From IMG/VR virus record IMGVR_UViG_2706794664_000002: a stretch of DNA of 24,991 bases; one strand, 5' to 3'. The notes below the pieces were generated by a model. The model was not told the origin of the DNA and made no database searches. It saw only the letters and a program-made list of their open reading frames with translations. The position numbers were made by a program, and so were the translations under genes. The DNA comes from a virus. Lineage: Duplodnaviria; Heunggongvirae; Uroviricota; Caudoviricetes. Positions 1 to 24,951 of this stretch are shown one piece after another. How positions within the stretch are numbered: position 1 is the first letter of the stretch; each line of letters starts with the position of its first letter.

Positions 1-85
1 AGGGACAGCTGATAGAAACAGAAGCCACTGGAGCACCTCAAAAACACCATCATACACTAAATCAGTAAGTTGGCAGCATCACCAG
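1..85 (-). mobile_element. IS1 insertion sequence, left terminus plus first codons of insA (partial; element body continues beyond window start)
   Basis: Reverse complement of 1-85 reads GGTGATGCTGCCAACTTACTGAT (IS1 terminal inverted repeat, window 63-85) and continues through the GTG start of insA (complement of 26-28), matching the IS1 left end as I recall it. Not checked against a database. Confidence 0.8.
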
Positions 86-402
86 CCTTCTTGAGGCTAC
101 CACCTGTTTTCAGGTGTCATTCAGACGTGATTTGCCCCAGATTGGGAAAGCACGCTTTTTTCTCAGCTATCGTCCTCTTATTTTGCCGTTACATTTCTTT
201 TTGCACTCTAATGATTAATTTACAATAATAATATCGGTAATTATTGAGTAATAATAAATTGATTATTGCAAATGTAATTTAATTCCATCTTCGCGTTATA
301 TTCCAATCTTTAATCTCCGCATGGAACAAGTTGCATGCGTGACTATATTAAGACAACTTATAACCACCAAAACATTTGCTTTGCAAGCAAAAACAGTGAC
401 CA

Positions 403-431
403 TTGACTCTAAGAAAATTCCGATCTATTGT
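403..431 (+). promoter_or_regulatory. Candidate sigma70 promoter (-35 TTGACT 403-408, 17-bp spacer, -10 TATTGT 426-431)
   Basis: Hexamers with near-consensus -35 and a 17-bp spacer, upstream of a small ORF and a downstream terminator. AT-rich context makes chance matches likely. Confidence 0.2.
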
Positions 432-465
432 TAGGGTCATCAAAGTTACTTAACAGTATTCCGAA

Positions 466-567
466 ATGAAAATACAAAGCAAGCTAATTGTCTTATTAAA
501 CATTATTATTGCATTTATATTATTTGAGCTTTTAGCTCAAAAATTTGGTTTGAGTACATTATTTTAA
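466..567 (+). CDS. Hypothetical 33-aa hydrophobic peptide (MKIQSKLIVLLNIIIAFILFELLAQKFGLSTLF)
   Basis: ATG at 466 to TAA at 565-567, translated by hand; a single predicted transmembrane-like stretch. No clear Shine-Dalgarno, so it may be non-coding. Confidence 0.15.
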   Translation: MKIQSKLIVLLNIIIAFILFELLAQKFGLSTLF

Positions 568-716
568 AGCAAGATAAACAATATCGGGCACTCTAGTTTT
601 TATAATTAACAATTAAACGTCCATAAAATGTTATTTACTTTTCTTCGCTATTGTCATATCTTAATATAGTGGCTTACGCCACTCTACTTTCATCACATTT
701 TGTACGTTTATGTACT

Positions 717-746
717 CGCCATGAAGCTCTTTCATGGCGATTTTTT
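717..746 (+). terminator. Rho-independent terminator (9-bp stem CGCCATGAA / TTCATGGCG, 5-nt loop, T6 tract)
   Basis: Perfect inverted repeat 717-725 / 731-739 followed by TTTTTT at 741-746 on the plus strand. The minus-strand reading has no U tract, so it is unidirectional. Confidence 0.5.
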
Positions 747-832
747 ATTCTTAATCCAAGAACATACTCCCTACCTATAGCAAAATCACTTTTTTAACAA
801 AAGAATAACGTATTTAGGTAATCATTACGAAT

Positions 833-1285
833 TTACCCTATAGGTGCTACTGGCCATTCAATATCCGGTGCAGTTGATGTATCAACACGGTTCAGCAACA
901 CCCGATACTTTTTCCAGGCTTCCAGCAACAAGGTTTCTTTCTCCGTTGCGATCTCCAGATCCACAGCATCCTGAAGCGGCGCTATATGCTCACTGGCTAC
1001 CTGCATCAGGCTGTTTTTTGTTTCTTCCGCCTCCCGGATCCGGAACAGTTTTTCTGCTTCCGTATCCTTCACCCAGGCTGTGCCGTTCCACTTCTGAAAC
1101 TCCCCTTCCGGGGATAACCAGGTGACATTTTCCGGTAATGAGCCGAGTTCAGAAATAAATAACGCGTCGCCGGAAGCCACGTCATAAACCGTTTTACCCC
1201 GATGATCTTCAACGAGATGCCACGATGTTTGCAGGCAGACCTGTATGAGGCGGAATATATGCGTCACCTTCACCAATAAATTCAT
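833..1285 (-). CDS. tfa: Tail fibre assembly protein Tfa, C-terminal domain ORF (150 codons from an internal ATG)
   Basis: Translation ...[28 protein letters not shown]...[22 protein letters not shown] matches the lambda Tfa C-terminal region; stop at 833-835. The lambda-like N-terminus lies in a different frame (see next feature). Confidence 0.75.
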
Positions 1286-1349
1286 TAGTTCCGGCCAGCA
1301 GGTTATAAATTTTTATGGTCCGTGCTTGTTCACTCATTCTGAATGCCAT
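1209..1349 (-). pseudogene. tfa: tfa N-terminal fragment (46 codons, [46 protein letters not shown]), out of frame with the C-terminal ORF
   Basis: Hand translation from the ATG at complement 1347-1349, which overlaps the stf stop as TAATG, reproduces the lambda Tfa N-terminus and then hits TGA at 1209-1211. About 20 codons present in lambda Tfa between PAN and SWHLV are absent, and the two halves differ by one frame. Confidence 0.5.
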
Positions 1350-4025
1350 TATGCGAGCCTCACAATATAGTTAAATGCGATGTTTTTGACGGTGTTTTCC
1401 GCGTTACCAGCAGCGTTAACGGTGATGGTGTGTCCATGTGAACCAATCGCAACAGAGTGCGTATGAGCACCAATACCGACAGTATGCGCGTGTGCACCCG
1501 CAGATGCTGCTGTGCCGGACAGTGAGTGTGTATGGTTTCCTTCTGAAGATGATTTACCTACCCATTGGGAGGTGCCACTGGTTAATGAGCCACTGATACC
1601 AACCTGATTAGTCCCGCTAACTTGAGTACTCCCTGCCGGAAACATTCCAGTAGGTTGACTCCCGCTATTCGTTCTGGGCCCAGTCTGACTATGTTGGTGG
1701 GCCCCAGCTGAACTTGTAGAGCCGCTCAGACTGTGCGTATGCGCCCCGGTGTTATTCGTGGATTTAGTGCCGTAATCAAACGACGATGTGGTTTTCGTCC
1801 CCAAATCCGTACTGGATGCGCTGGCGCTGTGGGTGTGCGATTTAATGCCATCCTGTTCCTGAGACAATACGGCACGACCACTGGCGGGCTTGCCCTTAAT
1901 CGTCCAGCCACGCATATCAGGGATCACGCCTGACGGATAAGCGGCTGCAAGTTTCGGGTAAGCAGATTTGTCAAAAGTCTGCCCCTGCATCAGGGCATAA
2001 CCAGACGGAACGGTATCTGATGGCCACGGGATTGGTGCACCGACTGGATAAAACTCTGCAGGAGGATGAGCCGAGGTGTAAAGCTGCGCCCACGGCGACC
2101 AGTTTGCGTCGGTCGTATCCCGTCGTGAACGAATAAATGCCGGAGCATGAGCACCGCTTGTACCACTCCAGCCGATGAGTAACTCACCTTCGCCAACGGC
2201 TGTCATCCCTTTCAGGTGAATGATATTTCCATACGCTGTTGGATATCCGTTGTTATACACCTCGTATAACTCAAGACCTGCTGCCCCCTGCGTATTGTCT
2301 GTCAGCGCGGCTACCCGACCTTTTGAAGCCAGATTAACTGATGATACTGCTGTTCCACCTGACGGTAGCGCCCCGATCTCTGATGCCGTTGGCTTATTTC
2401 TGGAGTTATAGTCCCTTCGCCAGCCAGGTGAATAATCTGTTCCGTGATTAATATAGGTAAACTGGGCGTTGGTTGTTCCGCCACCGCTGGATGTGGTCGG
2501 AGTGGTAATGCGGATCGTCATCGCTGACTTTATCCCCATTACTTCAATGACAGCTCCGGCGAGATGAATATTACCGCAGCCAGTATCAGTAATGATTTTA
2601 TTATTGCCATAAGACCAGGAACCCTTGCACATCCAGTATGGATGGTTAAATGCTCCCTGAGAATCCAGCCACTCGATAAACTGTGCAGTCGTCCAGTTTC
2701 CTGTTGTTGTGCTTACTGACCCACCGAAGGCACGGCAGGCACCAATATTTTTCGTAAAGGTGTCTTTGCCAGGGATATCCGCACCGTTCTGATCTTTCTG
2801 CAGACGTTTCTCAGCATTGTCATTGGCTGCTTTTACTGCCTTTGGCGTTGCCGCCAGCGTTTCAGACGTGCTGTTGGTCGCGCTGCTTAGCTGGATTATC
2901 CCTTTCTGTGCTGTCGTTGCATCCTGTGCGGTGTATTTCCCGTTAGCCAGGTCATACGCGGCCTTAACGGCTTTTGGTGTTGCCGCCAGTGACTCGGAAG
3001 TGCTGTTAGTCGCACTACTGAGCTGTACTATCCCCTTTTTCGTCGTGCTCGCATCCTCAAGCGCCACGGCGGATGCAATATCCTCTGCCCGTTTTGCCGC
3101 TGTCTCAGCGCGCGTTGCTGCAGATTCCGCCGTACTTTTGCTCTGAGCTGCTGCCGTCGCACTACCAGCAGCCTCTGTCGCCTTCGTGGATGCCGTCGTG
3201 GCGCTGCCCTTCGCTGCTGACGCCTGTCTGGTCGCCTCATCTTTTGAAGCAGACGCCGATGATGCCGATGACGCCGCCGAACTGGCGGACGATGCGGCAG
3301 CCGTTTTTGAGGATTCTNNNNNNNNNNNNNNNNNNNNNNNNNNNNNNNNNNNNNNNNNNNNNNNNNNNNNNNNNNNNNNNNNNNNNNNNNNNNNNNNNNN
3401 NNNNNNNNNNNNNNNNNNNNNNNNNNNNNNNNNNNNNNNNNNNNNNNNNNNNNNNNNNNNNNNNNNNNNNNNNNNNNNNNNNNNNNNNNNNNNNNNNNNN
3501 NNNNNNNNNNNNNNNNNNNNNNNNNNNNNNNNNNNNNNNNNNNNNNNNNNNNNNNNNNNNNNNNNNNNNNNNNNNNNNNNNNNNNNNNNNNNNNNNNNNN
3601 TGATTTCTTCGCGGCTGCCGTGTTCTGTGCCACCGCGGACGCGTTACGCGCCACCTCTTCCACCATCAGCTCAAAACGGCGCAGTGCCTCCGGACGGGCA
3701 TCATCCTCCGTCATGGCACCGAGAAAATCATTCAGNNNNNNNNNNNNNNNNNNNNNNNNNNNNNNNNNNNNNNNNNNNNNNNNNNNNNNNNNNNNNNNNN
3801 NNNNNNNNNNNNNNNNNNNNNNNNNNNNNNNNNNNNNNNNNNNNNNNNNNNNNNNNNNNNNNNNNNNNNNNNNNNNNNNNNNNNNNNNNNNNNNNNNNNN
3901 NNNNNNNNNNNNNNNNNNNNNNNNNNNNNNNNNNNNNNNNNNNNNNNNNNNNNNNNNNNNNNNNNNNNNNNNNNNNNNNNNNNNNNNNNNNNNNNNNNNN
4001 NNNNNNNNNNAATCTTTACTGCCAT
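1349..4025 (-). CDS. stf: Side tail fibre protein Stf (interrupted by N blocks 3318-3600 and 3736-4010)
   Basis: N-terminus MAVKI... at complement 4023-4025; internal [33 protein letters not shown]; C-terminal half with His-rich GAHxHS repeats ending [16 protein letters not shown] (stop 1349-1351). Frame changes across the N blocks, so the length is approximate. Confidence 0.85.
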
Positions 4026-4089: not shown

Positions 4090-4667
4090 TCAGAATTTAT
4101 AACCGACACCCACGATGAAACCGTCAGTGCGCCAGAGACGTGTTGCTGTGGCGACCGTCATCACTTCCGGTCAGCACATCGTGCGTTTTCCCCTTATTGT
4201 CAGTTACGCGGATATAATCCCCGGAAAAAGTCGACACACGGCTGTAAGCCACACCCACCATCGCATACGNNNNNNNNNNNNNNNNNNNNNNNNNNNNNNN
4301 NNNNNNNNNNNNNNNNNNNNNNNNNNNNNNNNNNNNNNNNNNNNNNNNNNNNNNNNNNNNNNNNNNNNNNNNNNNNNNNNNNNNNNNNNNNNNNNNNNNN
4401 NNNNNNNNNNNNNNNNNNNNNNNNNNNNNNNNNNNNNNNNNNNNNNNNNNNNNNNNNNNNNNNNNNNNNNNNNNNNNNNNNNNNNNNNNNNNNNNNNNNN
4501 NNNNNNNNNNNNNNNNNNNNNNNNNNNNNNNNNNNNNNNNNNNNGTTGGTCCGGGCATGAAGATACCCCGCGCTCAGCGTGGACTGATGTTCAGACGCCC
4601 ATGCAGGCGCACCGGATACGGCCAGGCAAATGGCTGCGGACAAAATGGCTGCACAAACTTTACGCAT
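4090..4667 (-). CDS. lom: Outer membrane protein Lom (Ail/Lom family beta-barrel), lysogenic-conversion moron; interrupted by N block 4270-4544
   Basis: N-terminus MRKVCAAILSAAICLAVSGAPAWASEHQSTLSAGYLHARTN (signal peptide) after a GAGG Shine-Dalgarno; C-terminus ...GFIVGVGYKF* with stop at 4090-4092. Confidence 0.85.
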
Positions 4668-4737: not shown

Positions 4738-7700
4738 TCAACGAATACTGATGCCGGAAGCCGCTTTTTTGGTCACAATCACCGTACAGTCGGTGATATT
4801 GCCTGCCCCCTGATTGCCTTTCTGGAAAATCTTAAACTCCAGAGTGACGCTACCACCACCACTAGGCATATCAATAACTGCACTGTAACTACCGGGAATG
4901 GCACCTTTAGTTTCTCTGGATGCGATTAATACGCCGTTTTTGCGAACTTCAAAACCATAACCCGTGTATCGCGTGCCTCCTGGGTTATTTCCGCTCCCCG
5001 GATCGTCATACGCTATACCGTTAAAAATAATGGGCGGAATAATAATCTGGCGGTCAAAGTTATGATCATCGCTTATGGTGACTGTAACCGTCCCGTTTGG
5101 TGTTTCCGTGTTACCCCACGTACCAGCCTGTTTCGGAAATGATTTGGATACAGCTTTAACGAAGTCACCTCTGACCTGAGTCGCCTCCAGCATGCCCTTA
5201 ATCGTACAGTTTTCATTTACCGTGACATTGTTGAGCGTCCCGGCGTTCGCATTCACACTGCCACTGATATCCGCATTTTTAGCGGTCAGCTTTCCGTCCG
5301 GAGTCAGGGAAAATGCCGATGGATTTCCACCGCTGGTAATGGTGGGGGCCGTCAGGCGTTTCAGGAACACGTCGTTCATGAATATCTGATCGCCCTGACC
5401 AACAAACATCGGTTTTGTGTTGCCATTCGCAGGATTAACCATCGCAATCCTGTCCGCCGCCAGCAGCACCTGACTCTGCATGCCGTCAGGGGTGTTCTCA
5501 ATACCGGCACCAATACCCGCGATATAAAGGCGTCCGTCCTGCATCTGCTGCAGCTTCACAGCCCACATGCTGTTCAGGTTATTATTTGTATCAACCTGAA
5601 CCTTCTGTATCTGCTGAATTGCCGCACTCTGGTCTTCCAGTTTCTTATTGACGGTCTGCGTGATTTCATTGCTGACATCCGTAATGGACGTCCTGATTTC
5701 AGCCAGGTCAGGCGCAAGCTGACCGTTATCAATCTGCGTCCACAGCTCCTGAGCCAGATGGGTTTTCCCTATCTCGCCTTTGAAAAAATCCAGATAACCG
5801 GATGCATCATCACTCGGCTGACCAACAGCCTCCACGAATGCCGATTTGCCAACGGTGTTCACACTGCGGATATAAAAGTAATAATCATGGCCCGGTTTGA
5901 TATTGATACTGGCGGCTATCCAGTACAGCGCCGTGCCAAGATAGCGTGCTGTGGTTTCAACCTGCCTGATATCCGCAATCCGCTTTTCCGAGAACCAGAA
6001 CTCAAACTGTACCGTCGGATCATAAACCGCAAGATGCGGCGTGGCGGTTATCTGAAAATAGCCCGGCGTCAGCTCAATCCGCGACAGCGCTGCCGGTGCG
6101 GCAATCCGGAACGATACCGACGCCGGATCGCCCTGCTGCCCCCACGCATTTACTGCCCGGACTGTCAGCCTGTAGTTCCCCAGCGCCAGTTGTGTGAAGC
6201 GGTAAGTGGTTTCCGTCGTCCGGGCCGTGCTGACCAGCCGCTCACTGCCGTCATCCGCTGTTACGGTCAGACGGAGCAGGAAGCTCACGCCCTTCACCAC
6301 CTTCGGCGTGTCCCAGCGCGCCAGCACCTGATATTCCCCGCTGTCTGCGGTGACTTCGGCAGTCAGGTGCTGCACCGCTGGCGGCGTGACACCATTCACC
6401 GTGCCGCTCTGGTCGCCGTCAAAGTGCGCCCCGTTATCCACGATGGCTTCTTTTTCCGGCACATGCTGCACGGCGGTGATGGCATACGTGCCGTCGTCGT
6501 TCTCACGGATACTCACGCAGCGGAACAATCGCTGGTGCAGCGTCGGCAGCTTCAGCCCCCACACGCTGTATTCAGCAACACCGTCAGGAACACGGCTCAC
6601 TTTTACCTTCACGCCGTCGGTGACGGACTGGACCTCCACGCTGACCGGATTCCCCTGCCCGTNNNNNNNNNNNNNNNNNNNNNNNNNNNNNNNNNNNNNN
6701 NNNNNNNNNNNNNNNNNNNNNNNNNNNNNNNNNNNNNNNNNNNNNNNNNNNNNNNNNNNNNNNNNNNNNNNNNNNNNNNNNNNNNNNNNNNNNNNNNNNN
6801 NNNNNNNNNNNNNNNNNNNNNNNNNNNNNNNNNNNNNNNNNNNNNNNNNNNNNNNNNNNNNNNNNNNNNNNNNNNNNNNNNNNNNNNNNNNNNNNNNNNN
6901 NNNNNNNNNNNNNNNNNNNNNNNNNNNNNNGCCCCCGGCTGGTACAGCCAAAGGCATCCATCTTCGTGACGTTACGACCGTAACGGACAATGGCCTGCGT
7001 ATCCTCCACAAGCTCTGTCGCCGTCTCCCAGCCGTTATCCGGGTCAATCCAGTTCACCTCAACGGCATTATGGCGGTCTTTCAGGGCGCTGAAACTGTAG
7101 CGGAACGGCGCGCCATCATCCGGCATCACCACATTACTGCGGTTATAGGCCCACACCTTATCCGACTGTCGGTCCTGCACGAACGTCAGCGTCTGCCCGT
7201 TCCATACCGGCATACAGCGCATCGCCGAGCAGAAATCACTGAGCACATCCCACGCCTTGCGCTGTGTGGTCAGCCAGGCATTACAGGTGATGCGCGGCTC
7301 CGTGCTGCCAAAGCCGTCCGGCACCGACTGGTCACAGTACTGGCCGATGACATACAGCGCCCATTTATCCACATCTGCCGCACCAAGACGTTTCCCCATG
7401 CCATAGCGCGGATGGGTCAGCATATCCCACAGACACCAGGCCATGTTGTTGCTGTATGCCGGTTTTAACGTTCCGTCCCAGATACCGCTGTATTGCCGCG
7501 TCTGCGGATTATAGTTCGACGGCACCTGCAGAATGCGCCCGCGAAGATGATAATTACGGCTCACCTGCTGGCTGCCGAACTGCTCCGAATCCACCTGTAC
7601 GCCGACCAGTGCCGTGTTCGGGTAGCACTGTTTCACATCGATGATTTCGGTGTATGACGACCAGAGCGTTTTGTTCTGCAGCTGGTCTGTGGTGCTGTCC

Positions 7701-8989: not shown

Positions 8990-9677
8990 TTGTCGGTATA
9001 CCTCTCTCGTTTGCTCAGTTGTTCAGGAATATGGTGCAGCAGCTCGCCGTCACCACAGTAAATGGCGGCATGATTCGGCACCGATGAACCAAAACAGCAC
9101 AGCAGCACATCGCCCGGCTGCGCCGCTGACAACGGCACCTGATACAGCCCTGTGGCCTCCAGATTATCCAGATAGAGATTCTGACCGTGACGCCACCAGT
9201 CATCCTCACGATGAAAATCCGGCATCTCAATCCCCGCCAGATGGTAAGCATCCCGGAACNNNNNNNNNNNNNNNNNNNNNNNNNNNNNNNNNNNNNNNNN
9301 NNNNNNNNNNNNNNNNNNNNNNNNNNNNNNNNNNNNNNNNNNNNNNNNNNNNNNNNNNNNNNNNNNNNNNNNNNNNNNNNNNNNNNNNNNNNNNNNNNNN
9401 NNNNNNNNNNNNNNNNNNNNNNNNNNNNNNNNNNNNNNNNNNNNNNNNNNNNNNNNNNNNNNNNNNNNNNNNNNNNNNNNNNNNNNNNNNNNNNNNNNNN
9501 NNNNNNNNNNNNNNNNNNNNNNNNNNNNNNNNNNNNNNNNNNNNNNNCCGGCTCACCGGAGATATTCACGCAGGGGAAATATCTTTCCCCCTCCGGCGTT
9601 CTTACCACGAAGCCGCACGACTCCGCTGGAGCACATCGCCGGGCGTGCGCCAGAATCGCTGATTCTGTCTCTGTCAT
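8887..9677 (-). CDS. K: Tail tip assembly protein K (MPN/JAB-like N-terminal part plus NlpC/P60-like C-terminal part); N block 9260-9547 inside
   Basis: N-terminal ORF MTETESAILAHARRCAPAESCGFVV... and C-terminal ORF ...PGDVLLCCFGSSVPNHAAIYCGDGELLHHIPEQLSKRERYT... (Cys/His catalytic motifs) flank the N block; stop at 8887-8889. Confidence 0.88.
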
Positions 9678-10710: not shown

Positions 10711-13221
10711 CGTCCACCTCCGGAGAACAGGCCACCATCACGCATCTGTGTCTGAATTTCATCACGGGCACCCTTGCGGGCCATGTCATACACGGCCTTC
10801 ATCATCTGTGGACCTGGCAGACCATTCGTACCGTCGTTCTGAATCACCACGTGATTGTTCTGATTAAAATTAATGCCTTCAGCCCGCCGCATCTGCGCCG
10901 GACTTCCGGCACCGCCCACATAACCACCTTCCGCATAGCCGCGCATCAGCCGGTAGAGATTCCCCACGCCAATCCGGCTGGTTGCCTCCTTCGTGAAGAC
11001 AAATTCACCACGGTGAACAATCCCCGCTGGCTCATATTTGCCGCCGGTTCCCGTAAATCCCCCGGTTGCAAAATGGAATTTCGCCGCAGCGGCCTGAATG
11101 GCTGTACCACCTGACGCGGATGCGCCGCCACCAACAGCCCCGCCANNNNNNNNNNNNNNNNNNNNNNNNNNNNNNNNNNNNNNNNNNNNNNNNNNNNNNN
11201 NNNNNNNNNNNNNNNNNNNNNNNNNNNNNNNNNNNNNNNNNNNNNNNNNNNNNNNNNNNNNNNNNNNNNNNNNNNNNNNNNNNNNNNNNNNNNNNNNNNN
11301 NNNNNNNNNNNNNNNNNNNNNNNNNNNNNNNNNNNNNNNNNNNNNNNNNNNNNNNNNNNNNNNNNNNNNNNNNNNNNNNNNNNNNNNNNNNNNNNNNNNN
11401 NNCCAGAGGATTATCGCCATACTGTTCCTTCAGGCGCTGTTCCGTGGCTTCCCGCGCTGCCTGCCGGTCAGTCAGCCCCCGGTTTTTCGCATCAATGGCT
11501 GCCCGTTTTGCCCGTTGCTGCTGTGCGAATTTATCCGCCTGCTGCGCCAGCGCATTCAGGTGCTCCTGATACGTAACCTTGTCACCAAGTGCAGCCAGCT
11601 GGCGTTTGTACTCCAGCGTCTCGTCTTTATGCGCCAGCAGGGATTTCTCCTGTGCGGACAGCTGGCGACGTTGTGCCGCCTCCTCCAGTACCGCGAACTG
11701 ACTTTCTGCCTTCCACAAATCCCGGCGCTGCTGGCTGATTTTCTCATTCGCTCCGGCATGCTTCTCCAGCGTCCGGAGTTCTGCCTGAAGCGTCAGCAGG
11801 GCCGCATGAGCACTGTCTTCCTGACGATCGCCCGCATACACCTTCACGCCGGACTGTTTCGGCTTTTTCAGCGTCGCTTCATAATCCTTTTTCGCCGCCG
11901 CCATCAGCGTGTTGTAATCTGCCTGCAGGATTTTTCCGTCTTTCAGTGCCTTGTTCAGTTCTTCCTGACGGGCGGTATATTTCTCCAGCGGCGTCTGCAG
12001 CCGTTCGTAAGCCTTCTGCGCCTCTTCGGTATATTTCAGCCGTGACGCTTCGGTATCGCTCTGCTGCTGCGCATTTTTGTCCTGTTGACGCTGTTGATCT
12101 ACCCTCTTTTGGGCTGCATCCCGCTCCAGGCGTTTTTTTTCACGATCATCCCAGTAACGCGCCCGTGCTTCATCGTTAACGAAATAATCATCCTTGCGCA
12201 GATTCCAGATGTCGTCTGCTTTCTTAAACGCAGCCTCTGCCTTAATCAGCATCTCCTGCGCGGTATCAGGACGACCAATATCCAGCACCGCATCCCACAT
12301 GGATTTGAATGCACGTGCAGTCCTGTCTGCCCAGGTCTCCAGCGTGCCCATGTTCTCTTTCAGGCGGCGGGTCTGGTCATCAAACCCTTTCGTTGCGGCC
12401 TCGTTCGCCGCCTGCAATGCCCCGGCTTCATCGCCGGAACGCTGCAACTGAGCAACATACGCAATCTGCTCCGCCGTCACGTTATGGAACTGGCGTGCCA
12501 TCGCCGTCAGCCCCGACGTCGGGTCTGTGGTCAGCTTCCCGAAGGCTTCAGCGACCTTGTCCACCTCCACGCCGGATGCAGAGGAGAAACGCGCCACACT
12601 CTGGCTGATGGACGCAATCTGAGCCTCACCGCTTACCCCCGCCTTAACCAGTGCGCTGAGTGACTCGCTGGTCTGGTTAAACGTCAGCCCTGCCGCCTGC
12701 CCGGCTCTGGACAGGACCAGCATACGATCTGCCGTCAGTCCCGCCTGATTACCGGAAAGGACCAGCGTTTTGTTGAAATCGGACAGGGTTGAGTTGCCCT
12801 GATACCAGGCATACGCCAGCGCACCGGTCGCCACCGCCAGCGAGGTGGCCCCCACCATCGGCAGGGTGATCGCGCCGGCAAGCCCCCTGAACATGGGGAT
12901 CATCCCGCCGAAGGAGTCCTTAACCTGACCACCCTGTTGCAGCAGGATCAGCCAGGGATTCTGCCCCCCTGCAAGCTGCGTGGCCACGTCGGTGAACTGT
13001 GCAGGCAGCATACGCATGGCGGCTTTATACTGCCCGACGGAAATCCCCGCTTTCTGTGCAGCCAGCGCCTGTCGGCTCAGCGACTGTTCAACGACTGCCG
13101 CTGTTTTTTTCGCATCACTTTCCGTACCGGAAAAATGACGCCTGACTCTGGCCATCTGCTCGTCAAATCTGGCCGCATCCAGACTCAAATCAACGACCAG
13201 ATCGCCTACCGGTTCAGCCAT
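10707..13221 (-). CDS. H: Tail tape measure protein H (N block 11146-11402 inside)
   Basis: N-terminus MAEPVGDLVVDLSLDAARFDEQMARVRRHFSGTESDAKK..., long coiled-coil-like Ala/Gln/Lys/Arg-rich body, C-terminal ...GGYVGGAGSPAQMRRAEGINFNQ...GGLFSGGGR*. Confidence 0.92.
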
Positions 13222-15211: not shown

Positions 15212-15823
15212 CGCTTTATTACCATTCTCAGTTGATGCTGCAGCGCATAGCCCAGCTCTTTCGGAAGACGTTCACGCCGTATCCGTTCAATATTCTGTTT
15301 AAACGCCGTGGTCAGCGGCACCGCCATCGGGATTTTCACCACATCAATGGGGTAACGGTTTTTCCCGGCCACACGCTGCATAACATGCCACCGGCCGTTT
15401 TTCAGTTGCTGAATAAACGCGCCGGGAATACGACGGTTACCCACCANNNNNNNNNNNNNNNNNNNNNNNNNNNNNNNNNNNNNNNNNNNNNNNNNNNNNN
15501 NNNNNNNNNNNNNNNNNNNNNNNNNNNNNNNNNNNNNNNNNNNNNNNNNNNNNNNNNNNNNNNNNNNNNNNNNNNNNNNNNNNNNNNNNNNNNNNNNNNN
15601 NNNNNNNNNNNNNNNNNNNNNNNNNNNNNNNNNNNNNNNNNNNNNNNNNNNNNNNNNNNNNNNNNNNNNNNNNNNNNNNNNNNNNNNNNNNNNNNNNNNN
15701 NNNNNNNNNNNNNNNNNNNNNNNNNNNNACGCGGTTAATGGCCATTGCGGCGGCACCGGGCACCGCCGTTTTGCTGATACGGCTGAGGTTTTCAACGGCC
15801 TGCTCAAGACCTTTTATGGCCAT
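15208..15823 (-). CDS. Z: Tail completion protein Z (N block 15447-15728 inside)
   Basis: N-terminus MAIKGLEQAVENLSRISKTAVPGAAAMAINR and C-terminus ...VGNRRIPGAFIQQLKNGRWHVMQRVAGKNRYPIDVVKIPMA...RMVIKR* flank the N block. Confidence 0.88.
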
Positions 15824-18061: not shown

Positions 18062-18681
18062 CTTACACTGGTGTGTTCAGCAAATCGTTAACGGCATCAG
18101 ATGCCGGGTTACCTGCAGCCAGCGGTGCCGGTGCCNNNNNNNNNNNNNNNNNNNNNNNNNNNNNNNNNNNNNNNNNNNNNNNNNNNNNNNNNNNNNNNNN
18201 NNNNNNNNNNNNNNNNNNNNNNNNNNNNNNNNNNNNNNNNNNNNNNNNNNNNNNNNNNNNNNNNNNNNNNNNNNNNNNNNNNNNNNNNNNNNNNNNNNNN
18301 NNNNNNNNNNNNNNNNNNNNNNNNNNNNNNNNNNNNNNNNNNNNNNNNNNNNNNNNNNNNNNNNNNNNNNNNNNNNNNNNNNNNNNNNNNCTCCGTCGCT
18401 TGCACCACGCCAGTAACGTCAGCCTGCGAAGCAGTGGCTGAAACAGTTGTTGATTGAGTCTCTTTGGTCATTCGCCCTCCTGAGAGACGGGATTTACGTG
18501 CATCCAGTGCATCACGCATGACGGTGATCGCATCGGTACTGTTAACAAGTTCATCAGCCAGTCCGGCATCAATGGCCTCCTGACCGCTGTACACTGCAGC
18601 CTCGGTATCCAGCACAGCCTGCACGGACAGGCCGGTATATGCCGACACCTTCTGTGCAAACATCCGGCGGGTTGCATCCAT
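18062..18681 (-). CDS. nu3: Scaffolding protein Nu3 (in-frame internal start within C, sharing its C-terminus)
   Basis: Internal Met at C residue 239 ([19 protein letters not shown]...), which corresponds to the lambda Nu3 start as I recall it. A second in-frame Met at 18469-18471 has a strong AGGAGG Shine-Dalgarno, so the true start is uncertain. Confidence 0.5.
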
Positions 18682-19395: not shown

Positions 19396-20985
19396 TCTTC
19401 TCCTCCTCTGTTGATTGTCGCAGCCCGGATTCAAATGCCGCAGCCGCCCAGGCGGGCGGTTTAAGACCAGCTGCGCGGCGCTCCATCGTTTCACGGACCT
19501 GCTGGGCAAAAATTTCCTGATAGTCGTCACCGCGTTTCGCGCACTCTTTCTCGTAGGTGCTCAGTCCGGCTTCTATCAGCATCACCGCTTCCTGAACTTC
19601 TTTCAGACCATCGATGGCCATACGACCGGAGCCTATCCAGTCGCAGTTCCCCCAGGCACTGCGGGCTTCCTGAAAGCTGAAGCGCGCTTTTGAAGGTAAC
19701 GTCACCACGCGGCGAACGATGGCCTCTTCCAGCCAGCACAGAAACATCTGGCTCGCCTGACGGGATGCGACGAATTTTCGCCGCCCCATAAAGTACGCCC
19801 ACGACTCGTTCGCACTGGCCCGTGCCGTGGAGTAGCTCATCTGGGCGTAATTCCGGGAAAGTTGCTCATACGAGACACCCAGCCCGGCAGCGATATACCG
19901 CAACAGTGACTGCTCAAACACGGAGTAGCCGTTATCCGTGTCCTGAGCCGTCTGCAGGTTCAGTGAGTCCCCCGGCATCAGGTGCGGCACTTTTGCGCCT
20001 CCCAGACGGACCGGTGCTGCGGCGTAATACGCGGCAATTTCACCAATCCAGCCCGTCAGCCTTTCCCGCTGCTCCTTACTGTTCGCGCCCAGAATAAAAT
20101 CCATCGCTGACTGCGTATCCAGCTCACTTTCAATGGTGGCGGCATACATCGCCTTCACAATGGCGCTCTGCAGCTGCGTGTTCTGCAGCGTGTCGAGCAT
20201 CTTCATCTGCTCCATTACGCTGTAAAACACATTTGCACCGCGGGTCTGCCCGTCCTCCACGGGTTCAAAAACGTGAATGAACGAGGCGCGCCCGCCGGGT
20301 AACTCACGGGGTATCCATGTCCATTTCTGCGGCATCCAGCCAGGATAGCCGTCCTCGCTGACGTAATATCCCAGCGCCGCACCGCTGTCATTAATCTGCA
20401 CACCGGCACGGCAGTTCCGGCTGTCGCCGGTATTGTTCGGGTTGCTGATGCGCTTCGGGCTGACCATCCGGAACTGTGTCCGGAAAAGCCGCGACGAACT
20501 GGTATCCCAGGTGGCCTGAACGAACAGTTCACCGTTAAAGGCGTGCATGGCCACACCTTCCCGAATCATCATGGTAAACGTGCGTTTTCGCTCAACGTCA
20601 ATGCAGCAGCAGTCATCCTCGGCAAACTCTTTCCATGCCGCTTCAACCTCGCGGGAAAAGGCACGGGCGTCTTCCTCCCCGATGCCCAGATAGCGCCAGC
20701 TTGGGCGATGACTGAGCCGGAAAAAAGACCCGACGATATGATCCTGATGCAGCTGGATGGCGTTGGCAGCATAGCCGTTATTGCGTACCAGATCGTCTGC
20801 GCGGGCATTGCCACGGGTAAANNNNNNNNNNNNNNNNNNNNNNNNNNNNNNNNNNNNNNNNNNNNNNNNNNNNNNNNNNNNNNNNNNNNNNNNNNNNNNN
20901 NNNNNNNNNNNNNNNNNNNNNNNNNNNNNNNNNNNNNNNNNNNNNNNNNNNNNNNNNNNNNNNNNNNNNNNNNNNNNNNNNNNNN
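19376..20985 (-). CDS. B: Portal protein B (N-terminal ~50 codons fall in N block 20822-21081; start coordinate approximate)
   Basis: Readable sequence from ...FTRGNARADDLVRNNGYAANAIQLHQDH... through ...MMIREGVAMHAFNGELFVQATWDTSSSRLFRTQFRMVSPKRISNPNN... to ...[12 protein letters not shown]; stop at 19376-19378. Confidence 0.88.
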
Positions 20986-20990
20986 NNNNN

Positions 20991-23110
<2,120 letters not shown>

Positions 23111-24044: not shown

Positions 24045-24278
24045 ATGTCAACGAAGAACAGAACCCGCAGAACAACAACCCGCAACATCCGCTTTCCTAA
24101 CCAAATGATTGAACAAATTAACATCGCTCTTGTTCAAAAAGGGTCCGGGAATTTCTCAGCCTGGGTCATTGAAGCCTGCCGCCGGAGACTGTGCTCAGAA
24201 AAAAGAGTTTCGCCTGAAGCAAACAAAGAAAAGAGTGACATTACTGAATTGCTCAGAAAACAGGTTAGACCAGATTGA
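24045..24278 (+). CDS. Small DUF3950-type (YnfO/YlcI-like) prophage protein, function unknown
   Basis: 77-aa ORF MSTKNRTRRTTTRNIRFPNQMIEQINIALVQKGSGNFSAWVIEACRRRL... on the strand opposite the late genes; resembles the cos-proximal small proteins of E. coli cryptic prophages (recalled, not searched). Confidence 0.6.
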   Translation: MSTKNRTRRTTTRNIRFPNQMIEQINIALVQKGSGNFSAWVIEACRRRLCSEKRVSPEANKEKSDITELLRKQVRPD

Positions 24279-24320
24279 AGCAATTTAGATAATCGTGCAG
24301 ACTACGCCCCCTCATATCAC

Positions 24321-24746
24321 ATGGAAGGTACTACAATGGCTCAGGTTGCCATTTTTAAACAAATATTCGATAAAGTGCGAAATAATTTAAACTATCACTG
24401 GTTTTATTCTGAACTAAAACGTCACAATGTCTCACATTACATTTACTATTTAGCCACAGAGAATATTCATCTTGTTCTTGAAAACGATAATACGGTTTTA
24501 ATAAAAGGACAGGGTAAGGTTGTAAATGTAAGATTTTCAAAAAATAAATGCCTTATAGAAGCCACCTTAAAAGGATTCAAATCAGGAGAGTTATCATTTT
24601 ACGAATACAGGAAAAATCTTGCTACAGCAGGGGTTTTCAGATGGATTACAAATATCCACGAAAACAAAAGGTATTACTATACCTTTGATAATTCATTACT
24701 CTTTACTGAGAACATACAGAACACTACACAAATATTTCCGCACTAA
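24321..24746 (+). CDS. DUF1398-type (YdfO/YbcV-like) prophage protein, function unknown
   Basis: 141-aa ORF; core ...[58 protein letters not shown]...[28 protein letters not shown]... True start may be the second Met (24336). Confidence 0.6.
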
Positions 24747-24747
24747 A

Positions 24748-24951
24748 TCATAACGTCCGGTTTCTTCCGTGCCAGAACCGGACTCGCTGGCATGATGAAA
24801 TATGTGTACCCGGTAACCCCGGTGTGCATCGTTTTTGATTATTCCCGCACACTCGCGCAGAAGGAGTTCCCCGTCGGGCTACGGTCTCTGTTAATACGGG
24901 AATACGGCGACGATTGGATTTGCCCCTATATTTCCAGACATCTGTTATCAC
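24748..24951 (-). CDS. Hypothetical small basic protein (67 aa); may be non-coding
   Basis: Only an ORF on the track (MITDVWKYRGKSNRRRIPVLTETVARRG...); no recognisable domain and no strong Shine-Dalgarno identified. Confidence 0.15.
   Translation of the reverse strand: MITDVWKYRGKSNRRRIPVLTETVARRGTPSARVCGNNQKRCTPGLPGTHISSCQRVRFWHGRNRTL

Follow-up and report, generated by a model that had tools for sequence, protein, structure and literature searches.

The subject of this analysis is the AT-rich DNA at positions 169-832 of a 24,991-nucleotide stretch of tailed-phage DNA (IMG/VR record IMGVR_UViG_2706794664_000002; the whole stretch is called the window), which lies between the end of an IS1 insertion sequence and the tail fibre assembly gene tfa of a lambda-like prophage. 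It contains a 33-codon open reading frame (ORF) that encodes a predicted small membrane protein related to YncL of Escherichia coli, with a promoter-like site ahead of it and a rho-independent terminator behind it. Judged by comparison with its homologues, the AT-rich DNA is a conserved accessory cassette and not a scar.

The region between IS1 and tfa

A first-pass annotation, made from the letters alone, had described every gene from the right end of the window through tfa as colinear with lambda, and this description is borne out, as positions 833-24991 align colinearly with phage Lambda records (95.8% identity). The Lambda match begins at query base 20, which corresponds to window position ~852 and lies ~19 nucleotides (nt) within the 3' end of tfa, and sensitive blastn against 50,697 phage records finds no lambda counterpart of 84-832; lambda homology therefore ends at the tfa 3' end, where the annotation had placed it. 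The only matches in that search are mEp332, PhiR70_1, and ev099, whereas Lambda and most lambda-like records align with the window only from ~852 on. The annotation had also named the possibility that the stretch is ordinary conserved lambda sequence that had escaped recognition, and BLASTN shows that it is not.

The GC content is 29.5% in 169-832 and 31.6% in 84-832, against 54.9% in 833-24991 and a mean of 54.7% (standard deviation 4.8, minimum 36%) for 664-bp windows elsewhere in the stretch. The composition of the cassette is thus unlike that of the surrounding phage genes, and its AT content is well above the host average, as in acquired DNA of the H-NS type; H-NS silencing seems plausible for DNA of 30% GC. 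The earlier description of low-GC, foreign-looking DNA missing from lambda agrees with these values except at positions 84-168, which have 48% GC, are not AT-rich, and have an origin other than that of 169-832. IS1 does adjoin the region, although the left border is at 84 and not at 86. A second low-GC stretch lies near the right end of the window (24150-24800, with 30-36% GC in 400-bp windows) and falls inside the lambda match range, which reaches ~24915.

There are no ORFs of 60 codons or more in 84-832, as had been reported, and the longest ORFs are 52 residues (70-228, with its start within IS1) and 48 residues. Stop codons occur at 0.071 per codon in the AT-rich DNA, so that 60 stop-free codons have a chance of ~0.012; ORF poverty is expected from base composition and is therefore not an independent signal. 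The 60-codon criterion nevertheless missed a conserved ORF of 33 codons. Among the several short palindromes of the annotation, those at 668-683 and 716-740 are strong and conserved, while the others are not. The coordinates of the features are collected in Table 1. Ten runs of N (255-288 positions each) break tail and head genes of the window and affect the ORF calls and the lambda coverage (78%).

Table 1. Features of the window, with positions counted from its first letter.
Feature	Position	Strand	Remarks
IS1A-type insertion sequence end, terminal 83 bp	1-83	-	end nearest the transposase start; remainder outside the window
85-bp remnant, phage-side arm of a fossil serU-type prophage attachment junction	84-168	.	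48% GC
AT-rich linker	169-254	.	only in lambda-attB type copies
Conserved upstream block 1	300-365	+	88% identity, window allele versus allele C
Sigma-70-like promoter (predicted), TTGACT-17 nt-TATTGT	403-431	+	consensus scan and own weight matrix; inferred start ~438
33-codon gene and stop codon	466-567	+	encodes MKIQSKLIVLLNIIIAFILFELLAQKFGLSTLF, YncL-like single-pass small membrane protein (predicted)
Variable part of the inferred 3' untranslated region	568-655	+	64.5% identity between alleles A and C, with indels
Hairpin AGTGGC-TTAC-GCCACT	668-683	+	conserved; within conserved block 2 (656-747)
Rho-independent terminator	716-747	+	11-bp stem, 3-nt loop, T-run; terminator scan and fold
tfa (tail fibre assembly) pseudogene	833-1349	-	stop codon 833-835; 65-bp internal deletion
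N runs (masked)	3318-3600, 3736-4010, 4270-4544, 6663-6930, 9260-9547		
N runs (masked), continued	11146-11402, 15447-15728, 18136-18390, 20822-21081, 21655-21916		

The 33-codon gene, its product and its flanking signals

Of 85 copies, drawn from genomes, phages, viral contigs, and metagenomes, 84 have the ORF intact from ATG to stop, and there are 8 nucleotide alleles and just 4 peptide variants. The single broken copy (L074) has ATG changed to ATA. A metagenome protein of 43 residues, P0003, is a rare frameshift variant with another tail after residue 26, which is consistent with the loss of 1 nt in the A-run at codons 25-26; no damaged copies other than L074 and P0003 were seen. The window allele and the divergent allele C differ at 18 of the 99 bases of the ORF; third codon positions account for 10 of these differences, first positions for 7 (several Leu-synonymous), and second positions for 1. 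The in-frame ratio of nonsynonymous to synonymous substitution rates (dN/dS) is 0.09 for this pair and 0.04-0.06 for other allele pairs, whereas the other two frames of the same alignment give 0.34-2.9. A Fisher test of synonymous versus nonsynonymous changes in the ORF gives p = 2e-5, and indels sit just outside the ORF in the alignment of divergent copies. By these codon-level measures the ORF is under purifying selection. A 37-residue ORF at 321-434, annotated in PhiR70_1, was rejected as a gene because its ATG is ACG in other alleles, and the phage records carrying the cassette annotate ORFs other than the 33-codon one.

The peptide has 33 residues, a grand average of hydropathy of 1.51, and a best 17-residue window of 2.94. 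It consists of a Lys-rich N-terminus, an ~18-residue hydrophobic span with a buried Asn, and a (K/R)FG motif. The only match in an NCBIfam search is YncL (NF000537, 'stress response membrane protein'), with 25.0 bits and E = 1.3e-5; the allele C peptide reaches 23.5 bits (E = 3.7e-5) and K-12 YncL itself 68.6 bits. NF000537 is an equivalog model with a curated cut-off of 35 bits, and the peptide, which scores below it, is therefore a distant relative of YncL and not an equivalog. BLASTP aligns the peptide to YncL of E. coli K-12 (31 residues, b4598) without gaps from Met1, at 39% identity over 28 residues (E = 2e-7). The gapless score is 60, while 5000 composition-preserving shuffles give a mean of 20, a standard deviation of 4, and a maximum of 44, and none of the 5000 reaches 60. 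The peptide thus shares with the YncL family a length of about 30 residues, one hydrophobic helix, and a similarity that goes beyond composition. Ser5, a basic residue at position 6, Asn12 in the hydrophobic span, and (K/R)FG at 26-28 are common to both proteins. In contrast, the cassette gene is prophage-borne and follows tfa, while yncL is chromosomal and lies beside ortT; yncL has a good Shine-Dalgarno sequence and the cassette gene has none.

The cassette shows no similarity to the yncL locus at the DNA level. It has no DNA match in the K-12 loci compared (the tail ends of DLP12, Qin, Rac, and e14, and the yncL and zinT-serU regions), and the sole relative of the peptide in those loci is yncL itself. 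Pfam, PHROGs, and PADLOC give no meaningful match for the peptide. Two unnamed entries among 15 billion proteins are identical to it, a set of 1.84 billion representative proteins contains only the peptide itself and the frameshift variant, and a literature search for the peptide string found no paper. Heat shock and minimal medium induce YncL, and cells that overproduce it show sublethal membrane depolarisation, condensed nucleoids, and reduced viability (PMC12542507). YncL is also an in vivo substrate of the protease RseP (PMC10470546).

The ATG follows the sigma-70-like site at a distance of 35 nt. In each of the three alleles scored, this site ranks first and keeps its position (10.96-11.76; at most 6.4 for the next + strand site), and its -35 hexamer is kept in all copies but one. 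Downstream of the ORF, the hairpin and terminator region (655-748) folds with a z-score of -6.5, and the full 311-nt RNA also folds better than shuffles (z = -4.0). The terminator is conserved also in copies that were found by BLAST independently of the pattern search. It is polar: on the - strand, the stem is followed by GTACATAAACG, and the structure is therefore no terminator for the tfa transcript. The cassette unit is convergent with tfa and ends 85 bp short of the tfa stop codon. The sole change in the stem of the 668-683 hairpin, C to T, gives a U-G wobble in + strand RNA and an A-C mismatch in - strand RNA. A further hairpin within the ORF (523-541) was dropped, as it is not conserved in allele C.

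Conservation is distributed by element. The identity between the window allele and allele C is 84% in the promoter, 80% in the ORF, 88% in block 1, and 91% in block 2, but only 53-66% in the spacers. Block 1 may be a regulator-binding region; promoter and fold scans of the alleles found no convincing conserved promoter or hairpin inside it. A terminator scan and promoter scoring in three alleles gave no conserved antisense promoter or terminator. Rfam searched at a permissive threshold (E up to 1) over 1-1500 gives no match in 84-832, and only the family IS009 is matched, in tfa.

Distribution, exchange and the left-hand joints

The AT-rich module (169-832) is matched in 831 of 5426 complete E. 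coli genomes (~15%), and in 822 of these 831 with at least 80% coverage. The cassette is also present in three isolated phages (mEp332, PhiR70_1, and ev099), 50 IMG/VR contigs, and 25 metagenome contigs. Two scans of GTDB species-representative genomes found no copy, and there is no evidence of the cassette beyond E. coli-type sequences. In each context examined, the cassette directly adjoins the 3' end of a gene annotated for tail fibre assembly, sometimes truncated; it occurs at three or more integration sites: lambda attB (bioA-ybhB), ydfJ (the Qin site), and beside the sit operon. The E. coli RefSeq records among the matches listed have no annotated feature beneath the match.

The copies fall into four groups: the window type; class 2, ~96% identical from window position 255 on; the L012 type, ~94% identical from ~285-290; and the divergent allele C, ~79% identical. 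Homology to the left of ~255 (class 2) or ~285-290 (L012 type) is lost in the other copy types. Class-2 and allele-C copies have a ~100-bp remnant of the tfa 3' end on the far side, which leaves the cassette flanked by tfa ends, and L047 has arisen by recombination between copy types. These tfa ends and the recombinant point to an exchange of the cassette between lambdoid phages through recombination in the tfa 3' end.

The IS1 end at the left of the window is part of a separate event. In 79 complete genomes, junctions that carry the annotation 'IS1-like element IS1A family transposase' match positions 1-330 with 100% identity. At 83/84, IS1 replaces 550 bp, including a serU tRNA fragment, that are present in TUM9757, mEp332, and ev099; in the IS1-bearing relative L065, IS1 (6316-7083) stands in place of 5451-6000 of the uninterrupted relative L004. 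The sequences flanking IS1 in L065 differ, and there is therefore no target duplication. An IS1 end, missing DNA, and no target duplication are together the marks of IS1 with an adjacent deletion, and this deletion falls outside the AT-rich cassette.

The DNA left beside IS1 has its own history. Positions 84-168 are the right edge of a 535-bp segment (L004 5551-6085) that is 99% shared with a zinT-adjacent prophage end (L007), and 340 bp of this segment (L004 5551-5890) are 97% identical to K-12 yodB-serU intergenic DNA together with the 3' 62 nt of serU. mEp332, ev099, and the TUM9757 prophage thus hold these 340 bp of bacterial chromosome, with a fragment of the tRNA-Ser gene serU, internally. 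The 340-bp segment is a fossil hybrid attachment junction of a serU-integrating phage. The 85-bp segment alone recurs at prophage ends in roughly 500 genomes, and the homology to other prophage ends stops at the joint 168/169. The IS1 and serU-fragment joints are ordinary prophage mosaicism.

The uninterrupted relatives (TUM9757, mEp332, and ev099) have ~1.5 kb without annotated genes after tfa, made of the cassette and the 535-bp segment, and beyond it a regulator gene of the AraC family (28% identical to AppY), followed by remnants of IS elements and the attachment region. The AraC-family gene (247 residues; L065 5366-6109, L004 4501-5244) lies beyond IS1 and outside the window. In the IS1 lineage 206 bp are left of the ~1.5-kb AT-rich region upstream of this gene, beside IS1. 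IS insertions change expression at the bgl operon, and the loss of upstream DNA might by analogy alter the expression of the AraC-family gene.

Independent IS1 insertions occur in other strains at the equivalents of ~711 (L040) and ~763 (L013), and L013 lacks the homologous sequence to the left of IS1, and with it the small ORF. Insertions within the cassette or at its edge, which make it look like an IS1 hot spot, are consistent with the preference of IS1 for AT-rich DNA. On the other side of the cassette, the tfa pseudogene is represented by two overlapping ORF pieces (1209-1349 and 833-1285), and it lacks 65 bp that are present in the intact tfa of L065 (582 bp); L040 has an intact homologue of 193 residues. 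The Rfam IS009 match (218.5 bits, E = 6e-55) lies at 873-1071 on the - strand, within tfa, and is typed by Rfam only as 'Gene'; we take it to be a reflection of tfa remnants in K-12 intergenic DNA and not an RNA gene here.

The cassette as phage cargo and the competing explanations

The window from ~300 to ~760 is probably a phage moron, a self-contained accessory transcription unit that follows the last tail gene and points against it. Transcription would start at the sigma-70 promoter and give a ~310-nt transcript carrying the ORF, and would end at the hairpin and intrinsic terminator (668-747), so that no antisense transcript would run into tfa. The product would be a single-pass inner-membrane peptide, a distant homologue of E. 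coli YncL, and by analogy with YncL it may act in the membrane of the lysogen, most likely by lowering the membrane potential and metabolic activity upon expression. Recombination at the tfa 3' end beside it would carry the cassette from one lambdoid phage to another. In a separate event, IS1 inserted to the left of the cassette, with 550 bp deleted and 85 bp of an old serU-type prophage end left behind.

The moron concept was developed by Hendrix, Juhala and colleagues, and bor and lom of lambda are examples. Like these, the cassette adds a gene that close relatives lack, it has a promoter-like site and a predicted terminator of its own and a composition unlike its flanks, and it lies in the late/tail region, apparently placed for expression in the prophage; it is present in some colinear phages and absent from others at the same position. 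It differs from bor and lom in that its gene is much smaller (33 codons) and unannotated in the records examined, and in that it has two further non-coding blocks, both conserved. In pathogenic E. coli, lambdoid prophages have exchangeable effector loci downstream of the tail fibre genes. The cassette occupies the same position, from the tail fibre genes to the prophage end, with different cargo, and in other prophages the stretch from the tail fibre genes up to the 85-bp end segment of window 84-168 holds NleG-type effectors or a diguanylate cyclase. YnfT and YnaM, identical 37-residue hydrophobic proteins at the Qin and Rac ends of K-12 (L068 8891-9004, L069 8294-8407), are also alike in kind, and they make plain that genes for small membrane proteins are a recurrent feature of lambdoid prophage ends. 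However, neither they nor the other K-12 prophage ends examined have sequence similarity to the cassette peptide.

Several points weigh against a moron with a YncL-like product. The YncL score of 25 bits is under the curated cut-off of 35, and the match spans ~28 residues of a largely hydrophobic peptide. The diversity of the ORF is confined to three or four lineages, and few events stand behind the dN/dS estimate. There is no Shine-Dalgarno sequence ahead of the ATG (upstream TTCCGAAATG), and a search of the literature and data found no expression or proteomic data for the ORF. Promoter-like matches are not enriched in the region (6 found, against 4.2 +/- 1.8 in shuffles). Moreover, a simple promoter-ORF-terminator model leaves the conserved non-coding parts 300-365 and 656-715 unexplained.

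Three other explanations account for some of these features, and they rank below the moron because of the points that stand against each. According to one of them, which is unlikely, the cassette is a type I toxin-antitoxin-like module in which a membrane toxin is kept untranslated by the structure of its mRNA or by an antisense or divergent small RNA, with blocks 1 and 2 as RNA control elements. The peptide, of fewer than 60 residues, matches Ldr, TisB, ZorO, and Fst-type toxins in size and hydrophobicity. It shares with Hok, Ldr, TisB, ZorO, and ShoB a short hydrophobic single helix, no obvious ribosome-binding site, and structured conserved flanking RNA, and its relative YncL depolarises cells and lowers viability when produced (PMC12542507). 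The missing Shine-Dalgarno sequence, the unusual conservation of the non-coding blocks around the ORF, and the better-than-shuffled fold of the 311-nt RNA would also suit such a module. In addition, RNAalifold pairs the start codon with the distant, invariant 3' linker in a helix, and two alleles have a promoter-like site on the - strand (370 to 342). Against this, the energy of the start-codon helix, all of whose pairs are invariant, is -6.9 kcal/mol and no better than that of shuffled linkers (mean -7.0; 939 of 2000 as good), and the helix was rejected as unsupported. A 12-bp pairing of block 1 (342-353) with block 2 (659-670) in the window was rejected as well, as it is broken at 3 positions in allele C. 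The promoter candidates on the - strand are not conserved in allele C, and no - strand terminator is predicted. No direct repeat joins block 1 to the mRNA, and a divergent antitoxin therefore could not pair with it. Unlike the known type I toxins, the cassette has no antitoxin RNA, supported translation-blocking fold, or family match in the computational evidence, Rfam included.

A non-coding RNA or regulatory locus is an equally doubtful or slightly poorer candidate. In that case, the 3' block (the 668-683 hairpin, the 32-nt invariant linker, and the terminator) would be a small RNA, possibly derived from the 3' untranslated region, or else the region would be a long regulatory leader for the AraC-family gene, and the ORF would be incidental. 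Block 2 is better conserved than any other part of the cassette, the ORF included, it has the hairpin, U/A-rich linker, and terminator of Hfq-type small RNAs and folds with a z-score of -6.5, and the single stem change fits + strand RNA only. On the other hand, the codon-position pattern and the low dN/dS show selection on the protein, block 2 has no conserved separate promoter, Rfam gives no match to it even at E up to 1, and its conservation may partly reflect recombination, as a crossover in L047 indicates. For the leader, phages of the lambda-attB type do carry the cassette in the 1.5-kb gap upstream of the AraC-family gene, but at the ydfJ and sit sites there is a cassette and no AraC gene, and in the lineage of the window IS1 lies between the two. 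An upstream regulatory region of the AraC-family gene was accordingly rejected as a general explanation.

The view of the first-pass annotation, that this is functionless foreign AT-rich filler, possibly silenced by H-NS, which marks a mosaic joint or deletion scar, is the least probable of the three and is improbable in itself. The low GC content, the joints at 83/84, 168/169, and ~852, the 550-bp IS1-associated deletion, three independent IS1 insertions in or beside the module (the window copy, L013, and L040), and the unannotated RefSeq matches all agree with it, and the joints and the deletion do stand as mosaic features. The AT-rich stretch itself, however, is no scar and no gene-less filler, since it is conserved across 831 genomes and has a promoter-like site, a selected ORF, and its own terminator. 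Its conservation is heterogeneous and element-like, unlike uniform decay, the ORF is intact in all but one copy with a strong coding signature, and 15% of genomes retain the cassette, at several integration sites. The deletion by IS1 lies outside it.

A bolder reading, which we consider rather unlikely, makes the cassette a hitherto unrecognised toxin-like or defence module carried by prophages. Blocks 1 and 2 as RNA elements, together with H-NS, would keep a depolarising YncL-type peptide silent until stress or superinfection released it to shut the host down, with abortive infection or dormancy as the outcome, and the 3' block might double as a regulatory small RNA. If this were true, it would give a biological role to the enigmatic YncL family and would add a new type I-like family in 15% of E. 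coli.

The seemingly empty AT-rich stretch thus conceals a conserved gene in a very well studied phage type. From the comparisons made here, the new element is an unannotated yet widespread gene for a putative YncL-like small protein, which gives annotation a concrete reason to include a small-protein model. mEp332 and ev099 can be grown as phages and offer a ready experimental system. The similarity links YncL, a chromosomal small membrane protein of the stress response, to mobile phage cargo, and suggests that the family may matter for the physiology of lysogens or for competition between phages.

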